The translations under genes and the position numbers were made by a program. A DNA stretch of 64,000 bases, taken from assembly GCF_050920415.1 (NCBI RefSeq), contig NZ_CP169309.1. The stretch is one strand, 5' to 3'. The notes below the pieces were generated by a model. The model searched no databases. It was not told where the DNA came from and saw nothing but the letters and a program-made list of their open reading frames with translations. The DNA is from Escherichia coli (GTDB taxonomy: Bacteria > Pseudomonadota > Gammaproteobacteria > Enterobacterales > Enterobacteriaceae). Below, one piece after another: positions 16,140-25,565 of the stretch (positions are counted from its first letter, which is position 1; each line of letters opens with the position of its first letter).

Positions 16140-16326
<187 letters not shown>

Positions 16327-20524: not shown

Positions 20525-22258
20525 GTGAAACAACAGATACAACTTCGTCGCCGTGAAGTCGATGAAACGGCAGACTTGCCCGCTGAATTGCCTCCCTTGC
20601 TGCGCCGTTTATATGCCAGCCGGGGAGTACGCAGTGCGCAAGAACTGGAACGTAGTGTAAAAGGTATGCTGCCCTGGCAGCAACTGAGCGGCGTCGAAAA
20701 GGCCGTTGAGATCCTTTACAACGCTTTTCGCGAAGGAACGCGGATTATGGTGGTCGGTGACTTCGACGCCGACGGTGCCACCAGCACGGCTCTAAGCGTG
20801 CTGGCGATGCGCTCGCTTGGTTGCAGCAATATCGACTACCTGGTACCAAACCGTTTCGAAGACGGTTACGGCTTAAGCCCGGAAGTGGTCGATCAGGCCC
20901 ATGCCCGTGGCGCGCAGTTAATTGTCACGGTGGATAACGGCATTTCCTCCCATGCGGGGGTTGAACATGCTCGATCGTTGGGCATTCCGGTTATTGTTAC
21001 CGATCACCATTTGCCGGGCGAAACATTACCCGCGGCGGAAGCGATCATTAACCCTAACTTGCGCGACTGCAATTTCCCGTCGAAATCACTGGCAGGCGTG
21101 GGGGTGGCGTTTTATCTGATGCTGGCGCTGCGCACCTTTTTGCGCGATCAGGGCTGGTTTGATGAGCGCGGCATCGCAATTCCTAACCTGGCAGAACTGC
21201 TGGATCTGGTCGCGTTGGGGACAGTGGCGGACGTCGTGCCGCTGGATGCTAATAATCGCATTCTGACCTGGCAGGGGATGAGTCGCATCCGTGCCGGAAA
21301 GTGCCGTCCAGGGATTAAAGCGTTGCTGGAAGTGGCCAACCGCGATGCGCAAAAACTCGCCGCCAGCGATTTAGGTTTTGCGCTGGGGCCACGTCTCAAT
21401 GCAGCCGGGAGACTGGATGATATGTCCGTTGGTGTGGCGCTGTTGCTGTGCGACAACATCGGCGAAGCGCGAGTACTGGCAAATGAACTCGATGCGCTAA
21501 ACCAGACGCGAAAAGAGATCGAACAGGGAATGCAGGTTGAAGCCCTGACCCTGTGCGAGAAACTGGAGCGCAGCCGCGACACGCTACCCGGCGGGCTGGC
21601 AATGTATCACCCGGAATGGCATCAGGGCGTTGTCGGTATTCTGGCTTCGCGTATTAAAGAGCGTTTTCACCGTCCGGTTATCGCTTTTGCGCCTGCGGGT
21701 GACGGTACGCTGAAAGGTTCCGGTCGCTCCATTCAGGGGCTGCATATGCGTGATGCGCTGGAGCGGCTAGACACACTCTACCCCGGCATGATGCTGAAGT
21801 TTGGCGGTCATGCGATGGCGGCAGGCCTGTCGCTGGAAGAGGATAAATTCGAACTCTTTCAGCAACGGTTTGGCGAACTGGTTACTGAGTGGCTGGACCC
21901 TTCGCTATTGCAAGGCGAAGTGGTGTCAGACGGTCCGCTAAGCCCAGCCGAAATGACCATGGAAGTGGCGCAGCTGCTGCGCGATGCTGGCCCGTGGGGG
22001 CAGATGTTCCCGGAGCCGCTGTTTGACGGTCATTTCCGTCTGCTGCAACAGCGACTGGTGGGTGAACGTCATTTGAAAGTCATGGTCGAACCGGTCGGCG
22101 GCGGTCCGCTGCTGGACGGTATTGCTTTTAATGTCGATACCGCCCTCTGGCCGGATAACGGCGTGCGCGAAGTGCAACTGGCTTACAAGCTGGATATCAA
22201 CGAGTTTCGTGGCAACCGAAGCCTGCAAATTATCATCGACAATATCTGGCCAATTTAG
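20525..22258 (+). CDS. recJ: single-stranded-DNA-specific 5'-3' exonuclease RecJ
   Basis: 577 aa, GTG start 5 nt after dsbC stop; DHH motifs (VVGDFDADG, DHH). Confidence 0.97.
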   Translation: MKQQIQLRRREVDETADLPAELPPLLRRLYASRGVRSAQELERSVKGMLPWQQLSGVEKAVEILYNAFREGTRIMVVGDFDADGATSTALSVLAMRSLGCSNIDYLVPNRFEDGYGLSPEVVDQAHARGAQLIVTVDNGISSHAGVEHARSLGIPVIVTDHHLPGETLPAAEAIINPNLRDCNFPSKSLAGVGVAFYLMLALRTFLRDQGWFDERGIAIPNLAELLDLVALGTVADVVPLDANNRILTWQGMSRIRAGKCRPGIKALLEVANRDAQKLAASDLGFALGPRLNAAGRLDDMSVGVALLLCDNIGEARVLANELDALNQTRKEIEQGMQVEALTLCEKLERSRDTLPGGLAMYHPEWHQGVVGILASRIKERFHRPVIAFAPAGDGTLKGSGRSIQGLHMRDALERLDTLYPGMMLKFGGHAMAAGLSLEEDKFELFQQRFGELVTEWLDPSLLQGEVVSDGPLSPAEMTMEVAQLLRDAGPWGQMFPEPLFDGHFRLLQQRLVGERHLKVMVEPVGGGPLLDGIAFNVDTALWPDNGVREVQLAYKLDINEFRGNRSLQIIIDNIWPI

Positions 22259-22348
22259 CGTCATATTATCTATAAAAAAGAGCGTGGATTCGGTACAATC
22301 CCGCTCTTATCACCGCATTTTGACTAGCTCAATAAAAGAAATCAGACC

Positions 22349-23447
22349 ATGTTTGAAATTAATCCGGTAAATAATCGCATTCAGGACCTCACGGAACGCT
22401 CCGACGTTCTTAGGGGGTATCTTTGACTACGACGCCAAGAAAGAGCGTCTGGAAGAAGTAAACGCCGAGCTGGAACAGCCGGATGTCTGGAACGAACCCG
22501 AACGCGCACAGGCGCTGGGTAAAGAGCGTTCCTCCCTCGAAGCCGTTGTCGACACCCTCGACCAAATGAAACAGGGGCTGGAAGATGTTTCTGGTCTGCT
22601 GGAGCTGGCTGTAGAAGCTGACGACGAAGAAACCTTTAACGAAGCCGTTGCTGAACTCGACGCCCTGGAAGAAAAACTGGCGCAGCTTGAGTTCCGTCGT
22701 ATGTTCTCTGGCGAATATGATAGCGCCGACTGCTACCTCGATATTCAGGCAGGTTCTGGCGGTACGGAAGCACAGGACTGGGCGAGCATGCTTGAGCGTA
22801 TGTATCTGCGCTGGGCTGAATCGCGTGGTTTCAAAACTGAAATCATCGAAGAGTCGGAAGGTGAAGTGGCGGGTATTAAATCCGTGACTATCAAAATCTC
22901 CGGCGATTACGCTTACGGCTGGCTGCGTACAGAAACCGGCGTTCACCGCCTGGTGCGCAAGAGCCCGTTTGACTCCGGCGGTCGTCGCCACACGTCGTTC
23001 AGCTCCGCGTTTGTTTACCCGGAAGTCGATGATGATATCGATATCGAAATCAATCCGGCGGATCTGCGCATCGACGTTTATCGCGCATCCGGCGCGGGTG
23101 GTCAGCACGTTAACCGTACCGAATCTGCGGTGCGTATTACTCACATCCCAACCGGGATTGTGACCCAATGCCAGAACGACCGTTCCCAGCACAAGAACAA
23201 AGACCAGGCCATGAAGCAGATGAAAGCGAAGCTTTATGAACTGGAGATGCAGAAGAAAAATGCCGAGAAACAGGCGATGGAAGATAACAAATCTGATATC
23301 GGCTGGGGCAGCCAGATTCGTTCTTATGTCCTTGATGACTCCCGCATTAAAGATCTGCGCACCGGGGTAGAAACCCGCAACACGCAGGCAGTGCTGGACG
23401 GCAGCCTGGATCAATTTATCGAAGCAAGTTTGAAAGCAGGGTTATGA
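22349..23447 (+). CDS. prfB: peptide chain release factor 2, made by programmed +1 frameshift: join(22349..22423,22425..23447)
   Basis: Frame 0 runs [25 protein letters not shown] then in-frame TGA at 22424-26 within CTT AGG GGG TAT CTT TGA C; +1 frame continues [12 protein letters not shown]... to 23447 and contains the GGQ motif (SGAGGQHVN); 365 aa product. Confidence 0.95.
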
Positions 23448-23456
23448 GGAACCAAC

Positions 23457-24974
23457 ATGTCTGAACAACACGCACAGGGCGCTGACGCGGTAGTCGATCT
23501 TAATAATGAGCTGAAAACGCGTCGTGAGAAGCTGACGAACCTGCGTGAGCAGGGGATTGCCTTCCCGAACGATTTTCGTCGCGATCATACCTCTGACCAA
23601 TTGCACGCAGAATTCGACGGCAAAGAAAACGAAGAACTGGAAGCGCTGAACATCGAAGTTGCCGTTGCTGGCCGCATGATGACCCGTCGTATTATGGGTA
23701 AAGCCTCCTTCGTTACTCTGCAGGATGTCGGTGGTCGCATTCAGCTGTATGTGGCTCGTGACGATCTGCCGGAAGGTGTTTATAACGATCAATTCAAAAA
23801 ATGGGATCTCGGCGATATCCTCGGCGCGAAAGGTAAACTGTTCAAAACCAAAACTGGCGAACTGTCGATCCATTGCACCGAGCTGCGTCTGCTGACCAAA
23901 GCACTGCGTCCGCTGCCGGACAAATTCCACGGTTTGCAGGATCAGGAAGCGCGCTATCGTCAGCGTTATCTGGATCTCATTTCTAACGATGAATCCCGCA
24001 ACACCTTTAAAGTGCGTTCGCAGATCCTCTCTGGCATTCGCCAGTTCATGGTGAATCGTGGCTTTATGGAAGTTGAAACGCCGATGATGCAGGTGATCCC
24101 AGGCGGCGCGGCGGCGCGTCCGTTTATCACCCATCACAATGCGCTGGATCTCGACATGTACCTGCGTATCGCGCCGGAACTGTACCTCAAGCGCCTGGTG
24201 GTTGGTGGCTTCGAGCGTGTATTCGAAATCAACCGTAACTTCCGTAACGAAGGTATCTCCGTACGTCATAACCCAGAGTTCACCATGATGGAACTCTATA
24301 TGGCTTACGCGGATTACAAAGATCTGATCGAGCTGACCGAATCGCTGTTCCGTACTCTGGCACAGGATATTCTCGGTAAGACCGAAGTGACCTACGGCGA
24401 CGTGACGCTGGACTTCGGTAAACCGTTCGAAAAACTGACCATGCGTGAAGCGATCAAGAAATATCGCCCGGAAACCGACATGGCGGATCTGGACAACTTC
24501 GACTCTGCGAAAGCGATTGCTGAATCTATCGGCATCCATGTTGAGAAGAGCTGGGGTCTGGGCCGTATCGTTACCGAGATCTTCGAAGAAGTGGCAGAAG
24601 CACATCTGATTCAGCCGACCTTCATTACTGAATATCCGGCAGAAGTTTCTCCGCTGGCGCGTCGTAATGACGTTAACCCGGAAATCACTGACCGCTTTGA
24701 GTTCTTCATTGGTGGTCGTGAAATCGGTAACGGTTTTAGCGAGCTGAATGACGCGGAAGATCAGGCGCAGCGCTTCCTGGATCAGGTTGCCGCGAAAGAC
24801 GCAGGCGACGACGAAGCGATGTTCTACGACGAAGATTACGTCACCGCACTGGAACACGGCTTACCGCCGACAGCAGGTCTGGGAATTGGTATCGACCGTA
24901 TGGTAATGCTGTTCACCAACAGCCATACCATCCGTGACGTTATTCTGTTCCCGGCGATGCGTCCGGTGAAATAA
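23457..24974 (+). CDS. lysS: lysine--tRNA ligase (constitutive)
   Basis: 505 aa class II aaRS recognised as LysS; 9 nt after prfB stop. Confidence 0.97.
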
Positions 24975-24994
24975 GCATTACGTTATGCTCACAA

Positions 24995-25018
24995 CCCCGG
25001 CAAATGTCGGGGTTTTTT
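24995..25018 (+). terminator. Rho-independent terminator after lysS
   Basis: Hairpin ccccgg-caaatgt-cgggg plus T6; the convergent idi stop codon lies inside the T-tract. Confidence 0.7.
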
Positions 25019-25565
25019 AATTGTGCTGCGCGAAAGCAGACAACAATTTTCTTGCTTCACTATTGGCTGCCTGCATCACCATCCACGGGCTGAACGCCCA
25101 CGGCGTGGCATCAATACCGTGTAATACATCTGCTAAATCACACCATTGATAATCCATCACTTCATCATCATTGATCTGTAACGCACTGGTCGTGCGTGCG
25201 GCAAATACCGGACACACTTCATTTTCCACAATGCCACTCGGATCGGTGGCGCGGTAGCGAAAGTCAGGATAGATAGATTCAGGAGGCGTAATTTCCACGC
25301 CAAGCTCATAACGGCAACGGCGGATCACTGCGTCTTCGTTGCTTTCTCCCTGTTGTGGGTGCCCACAAACCGAGTTAGTCCACACGCCAGGCCATGCTTT
25401 TTTGCTCAGTGCGCGGCGGGTAACTAATAATTGCCCCTTGGCATTAAACAGCCAACTGGAGAACGCGAGATGTAAGAGGGTGTCTGCCGTGTGTGCGGCA
25501 TACTTTTCCAGCGTACCCGTGGGAACTCCCTGTGCATTCAATAAAATGACGTGTTCCGTTTGCAT
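25017..25565 (-). CDS. idi: isopentenyl-diphosphate delta-isomerase (type 1, Nudix)
   Basis: 182 aa [32 protein letters not shown]... recognised as Idi. Confidence 0.95.

Follow-up and report, generated by a model that had tools for sequence, protein, structure and literature searches.

The +1 frameshift in prfB of Escherichia coli K-12 and the accompanying autoregulation of RF2 go back to Craigen and Caskey 1986, as cited in PMC5373646. In the mechanism described for bacterial prfB genes, termination by RF2 competes with a +1 slip of the ribosome, which is stimulated by a Shine-Dalgarno (SD)-like element and involves re-pairing on UUU (PMC12421855). The same survey reports the frameshift in 64% of 12,753 genomes and describes a hyper-conserved motif, AGGGGG-N3-CTTTGAC, in which the stop is never TAG. 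Ribosome profiling at the native E. coli locus puts frameshifting at ~28% in K-12 and at ~21% with Ala246 RF2 in the K-12 background, so that this variant frameshifts slightly less than that of K-12 (PMC5373646). Thr246 is, according to the same source, a peculiarity of K-12 with reduced activity, Ala246 being the canonical 'B-type' form, which is fully active.

Recoding at a slippery sequence is a feature shared by prfB with the -1 frameshifts of dnaX and of IS elements. An internal SD-like stimulator is also present in the dnaX frameshift. These systems differ from prfB in the direction of the shift, which is -1 in the former and +1 in the latter, and in the A-site signal, which in prfB is a stop codon that the product of the gene itself recognises. 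Moreover, the prfB site neither needs nor has a downstream hairpin or pseudoknot, in line with the fold score given below.

The site described here lies in a 64-kb stretch of E. coli chromosome (the window, in whose coordinates all positions are given), and we read it as the programmed +1 ribosomal frameshift site of prfB, the RF2 gene, with negative feedback by RF2, a reading to which we assign a probability of about 0.98. It is an already known, textbook case, and nothing in this copy departs from the canonical form. Positions 22300-22480 are identical to MG1655, the background strain of the experiments, and the identical stretch spans the leader, the start, the 25-codon frame, AGGGGG, UAU, CUU UGA C and the first downstream codons. 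Since the whole signal is identical to that of K-12, the published K-12 results transfer directly; slippage, the efficiency with which it occurs and the feedback are those to be expected from published E. coli experiments on the identical sequence. What the present analysis shows directly is every sequence element, an RF2 that continues over the junction, the lack of any other start and a conserved motif. The product length of 365 aa, the gene order recJ-prfB-lysS and the annotation as a join are likewise the same as in K-12, and the differences consist of Ala246 in place of the unusual, less active Thr246 of K-12 and of 24 synonymous changes. Compared with the bacterial consensus AGGGGG-N3-CTTTGAC, the site matches every specified position and shows no difference; it is thus the canonical form, as opposed to rare prfB variants such as TTTTTGA slippery tracts (PMC12421855).

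Layout of the recoding signal

Read base by base, positions 22409-22427 of the + strand give CTT AGG GGG TAT CTT TGA C. The leading CTT (22409-22411) is followed by AGGGGG (22412..22417), the internal SD-like frameshift stimulator, which is recognised both from the sequence and from the energy of its duplex with the anti-SD. The next codon, UAU (Tyr24, 22418..22420), forms a 3-nt gap between AGGGGG and the slippery codon, a spacing equal to the published consensus (PMC12421855); this codon is the one in the E site while CUU occupies the P site. The slippery CUU (Leu25, 22421-22423) forms with the following base the slippery sequence CUU U (22421..22424), to which the published mechanism assigns the slip (PMC12421855), and this sequence overlaps the in-frame RF2-specific stop UGA (codon 26, 22424-22426). 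The C that follows at 22427 makes a weak termination context (PMC12421855), and the whole of CTTTGAC at 22421-22427, with its overlapping stop and subsequent C, fits the published consensus. The earlier note had claimed an in-frame UGA after codon 25 within this 19-nt string and an AGGGGG placed 3 nt upstream of the slippery CUU, and both elements are found where it had put them, the hexamer being followed by TAT and then by CTT.

Could such an arrangement be a matter of chance? With one mismatch allowed, AGGGGGNNNCTTTGAC has a single occurrence in the 64-kb window, at 22409-22427, and a mean of 0.05 occurrences in shuffled sequence. A stronger argument against chance than this pattern count is that the motif falls exactly where the halves of the RF2 homologue change frame.

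The strength of the stimulator was estimated by sliding ACCUCCUUA, which we take to be the 3' tail of 16S rRNA (anti-SD), along the + strand and calculating the duplex energy for each 9-mer. The 9-mers over AGGGGG reach -10.6 kcal/mol, which is the strongest anti-SD duplex in prfB, the next best being -7.1; only 0.06% of the + strand 9-mers of the window bind the anti-SD as strongly. Folding of 22400-22500 yielded a minimum free energy of -30 kcal/mol with z = -1.02, no better than shuffles, and Rfam returned no family over the site, either in 22250-22650 with permissive filters or in the whole window at gathering thresholds. A structure-stimulated mechanism was rejected on the basis of the fold score, which fits the known SD-driven mechanism.

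The fold and the Rfam search also bear on another explanation of the frame structure, namely readthrough of the UGA, with selenocysteine or a near-cognate tRNA decoding it, in place of a frameshift that bypasses it. UGA-C is a leaky context, and UGA readthrough is known in E. coli (PMC5373646), but the site has neither a significant downstream structure that could serve as a SECIS (z = -1.02) nor an Rfam match. Frame 0 past the UGA encodes 31 residues unlike RF2 before a stop, reached after 32 codons, so that a readthrough product would be a dead end of 57 aa, and in the solved RF2 position 26 is Asp, without any additional residue. Readthrough is, in our judgement, a practically untenable account of this UGA, as compared with the programmed +1 frameshift.

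Continuity of RF2 across the junction

In frame 0, an ORF begins with the ATG at 22349 and runs for 25 codons to the in-frame TGA; it appears in the ORF listing as 22349..22426 (25 aa). Its codons 1-25 (22349..22423, + strand, frame 0) constitute the first segment of prfB, and their translation matches residues 1-25 in structures of E. coli RF2. In the +1 frame, the open stretch extends from 22371 to 23447; within it, translation, alignment and profile score delimit the second segment (22425..23447, + strand), which comprises codons 26-365 plus the terminal UGA at 23445-23447. The ORF listing shows the downstream frame only as 22566..23447, counted from its first ATG, in keeping with the remark of the earlier note that the ORF track gives just a 293-aa downstream segment.

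The two segments taken together, join(22349..22423,22425..23447), translate to 365 aa and a stop. In a search of all solved structures, the joined product aligned to E. coli RF2, in entries 1gqe and 1ml5 and in many ribosome complexes, with residues 1-365 on 1-365 and E ~1e-240, the junction L25-D26 (RGYL followed by DYDAK) being ungapped. The check proposed in the earlier note, to translate this join and to align it to the 365-aa RF2, therefore gave a match contiguous from end to end. On NCBIfam TIGR00020 (prfB) the joined product reaches 525.9 bits, the cut-off being 370, and RF1 models give 305.7 and 303.8 bits, under their cut-offs of 400 and 423. It carries the SPF stop-codon recognition tripeptide at residue 205 and the GGQ catalytic motif at residue 250. 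RefSeq presents the orthologous gene, 99.9% identical in DNA, as a two-piece join, which is the annotation that had been advised for this locus; the note 'programmed frameshift' stands on the two-piece prfB CDS both in the best-matching record and in MG1655, and the span of 1099 nt equals that of 22349..23447. The original interpretation as a prfB programmed +1 frameshift site is thus supported by the contiguous RF2 alignment, by the TIGR00020 score and by the RefSeq join.

The two frames might also be supposed to be translated with no frameshift at all, one giving a 25-aa peptide and the other a truncated RF2 started separately at ATG 22566 (Met73, 293 aa), and the mechanical ORF list gives exactly these two ORFs. 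Such separate initiation is contradicted by the +1 codons of 22425-22565, which encode RF2 residues 26-72 in perfect match to the solved protein. The frame-0 residues 1-25 match RF2 as well, the solved native E. coli RF2 contains residues 1-365, and the junction peptide GYLDYDAK is present in PDB sequences of E. coli RF2. A search of the +1 frame from 22371 for ATG, GTG and TTG found none ahead of 22566, so that residues 26-72 can be reached only by a shift from frame 0. The probability that the halves are initiated separately is accordingly close to nil, and the continuous RF2 produced by the programmed frameshift is the reading we retain.

Conservation within E. coli

The 1401-nt segment at 22200-23600 is matched in 5425 of the 5426 complete E. 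coli genomes, once in each (median of one place per genome), with an identity of 99.9% in the best match and of 95-99% in most. A 46-mer centred on the site is matched in 5424 of the 5426 genomes, with 100% identity in 4410 of these 5424; two of the variant records, EV36 and GF131, were examined, and both have their changes 3' of the 19-nt site. Across six diverse E. coli strains, the window at 22300-22480 is identical bar two positions 3' of the site.

This distribution, along with that in other species discussed below, decides on whether the frame break could be an inactivating mutation, making the gene a pseudogene, or a surplus T introduced in error during sequencing or assembly. A single extra base splitting an essential gene, seen alone, does resemble an error, and E. 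coli NIPH17_0036 carries a damaged prfB annotated as a pseudogene, though its deletion of ~26 nt lies elsewhere than the site. An error is, however, hard to reconcile with the presence of the same extra base in the same 19-nt context in all six aligned strains, with the occurrence of the 46-mer in nearly every genome, and with the same arrangement in 116 RF2 genes of other species among the matches listed, down to 42% protein identity. Around the break there are also an SD-like element at a precise distance, a slippery codon and a weak stop, and the pseudogene variant of this explanation is opposed by the essentiality of RF2 and its single copy per genome. Because of this conservation, we regard both error and pseudogene as effectively refuted.

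As for the damaged gene of NIPH17_0036 (NZ_AP024561.1), it shows a net deletion of ~26 nt with a rearranged stretch at gene nt about 341-403, and RefSeq describes it as a pseudogene ('PCRF domain-containing protein; internal stop; incomplete'); the frameshift site itself is intact. Since RF2 is essential, the damage is probably an assembly error; otherwise the strain would be a noteworthy one.

Relative to MG1655, prfB of the window has 25 nucleotide differences, 24 of them synonymous and all 24 beyond gene nt 255. The sole amino-acid difference from the K-12 RF2 is at residue 246 (23084-23086), with Ala here and Thr in K-12. The recJ-prfB-lysS allele as a whole is rare: identity of at least 99% over 22200-23600 is seen in only 10 of 5425 E. 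coli genomes, most being at ~97.5%, and the nearest record is that of strain MFDS1022581, at 99.9%. The rarity of the allele (21000-24900), together with the divergence of lysS, suggests that the lineage is a divergent one within E. coli or that the segment was imported.

Conservation across species

An exact-match scan for AGGGGGTATCTTTGAC over one genome per species, 298 Gb in all, gave at least 120 loci; the scan selects for the exact motif and says nothing on the number of species without it. By chance, a random 16-mer would turn up in 298 Gb on the order of 100 times, so the raw count carries no weight as evidence and was dropped, each match being tested instead for RF2 context. Among the 120 matches listed, 116 have AGGGGGTATCTTTGAC at an RF2 junction, with a frame-0 ORF running to CTT and a +1 ORF from GAC. 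Their lineages include Gamma- and Betaproteobacteria, Bacteroidota, Nitrospirae and others. The remaining four listed matches are divided between two cut off by locus ends and two outside RF2 genes, and the latter imply that the 16-mer is not diagnostic when taken out of its gene context. The two matches away from an RF2 junction are in an Aminicenantes MAG (L044) and in a Cryomorphaceae MAG (L065), and they are probably chance occurrences in 298 Gb.

Full-length joined products could be aligned for 100 of the listed matches, and all 100 alignments span the junction, at 42-99.7% protein identity to the RF2 of the window (median 69%). The codons flanking the motif vary synonymously among the listed matches, the Leu codon before AGG being CTT, CTC, CTG, TTG, TTA or CTA. 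Judged from these alignments, the motif appears to be kept at the nucleotide level beyond what the protein sequence needs.

An invariant patch at the start of prfB

The stretch of 312 nt at 22292-22603, made up of 57 nt of leader and the first 85 prfB codons, has zero differences from MG1655. Divergence from that strain per 100 nt amounts to 3.8 in the 3' part of recJ, 3.0 in prfB beyond nt 255 and 5.6 in lysS. Of 5425 E. coli genomes, 5398 have the patch at an identity of 99% or more, whereas the following 312 nt reach this level in only 11 of 5425. In E. albertii the patch is 1.0% divergent, against ~6% in the flanks, and a low-divergence patch was sought and found absent in Citrobacter and Enterobacter.

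What could keep this segment uniform? One possibility is functional constraint of the recoding signal extending well beyond the 19-nt motif, with the mRNA sequence acting through ribosome loading or spacing that would tune frameshift efficiency. Between genera, the fraction of codons changed is 0.21-0.33 in the first 85 codons and 0.29-0.34 in the rest, and codons 1-20 only show ~two-fold fewer synonymous changes when pooled between genera. Since conservation between genera is not clearly higher in the first 85 codons than in the rest, extended synonymous constraint was rejected as a general property of prfB and retained as a peculiarity of Escherichia. We consider functional constraint on the patch unlikely. 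Its simplest reading is a gene conversion, recombination or mosaic segment shared across Escherichia, which is favoured by the lack of a patch effect in Citrobacter and Enterobacter.

Gene neighbourhood

The neighbouring ORFs encode DsbC, RecJ and LysS, in the order dsbC-recJ-prfB-lysS, as in the E. coli arrangement xerD-dsbC-recJ-prfB-lysS (RefSeq). The operon partner lysS (lysine-tRNA ligase, 23457..24974, + strand; NCBIfam NF009101 at 1109 bits, and RefSeq) lies outside the recoding signal and starts 9 nt downstream of prfB on the same strand. The terminal stop of prfB is itself a UGA (TTA TGA GG, within 23445-23459) and hence RF2-specific; it is overlapped by the GAGG SD for lysS, with 9 nt to the lysS ATG. 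A promoter and terminator scan of 21900-25200 detected a terminator-like hairpin after lysS (24993-25014) and one weak promoter-like site (22209-22236), which is uninformative, as shuffles yield more promoter-like sites.

Elsewhere in the window, Rfam and ARAGORN scans located a Sib antitoxin sRNA (1863-2013, - strand), 6S RNA (ssrS, 2662-2845, - strand), naRNA4, a REP-derived nucleoid-associated RNA (16150-16227, - strand), and tRNA-Gly(CCC) (59393-59466, + strand). These four are in keeping with the part of the E. coli chromosome near ssrS, prfB and glyU, and the orientation of the window is presumably opposite to K-12 coordinates.

Mechanism and implications

How would the site operate? By analogy with the published K-12 experiments, a ribosome would initiate at ATG 22349, read 25 codons and arrive at the point where the P site is occupied by CUU (Leu25) and the A site by UGA-C. 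When RF2 is plentiful, the UGA would be recognised and a 25-residue peptide released. When RF2 is scarce, the ribosome would pause at UGA-C, and AGGGGG would pair with the anti-SD of 16S rRNA, destabilising or displacing the E-site tRNA. The peptidyl-tRNA-Leu could then slip one base forward, from CUU to UUU, after which GAC (Asp26) would be read next and the full-length 365-aa RF2 produced. The level of RF2 would in this manner set the rate of its own synthesis, constituting negative feedback.

Naive ORF calling breaks an essential gene into ORFs of 25 aa and 293 aa, and the locus is correctly annotated as join(22349..22423,22425..23447), with ribosomal slippage indicated. The site, with its Ala246 RF2, also helps to mark the window as a chromosome segment of a non-K-12 E. 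coli lineage. The locus represents the classic case in which a protein governs its own production through competition with a recoding event.
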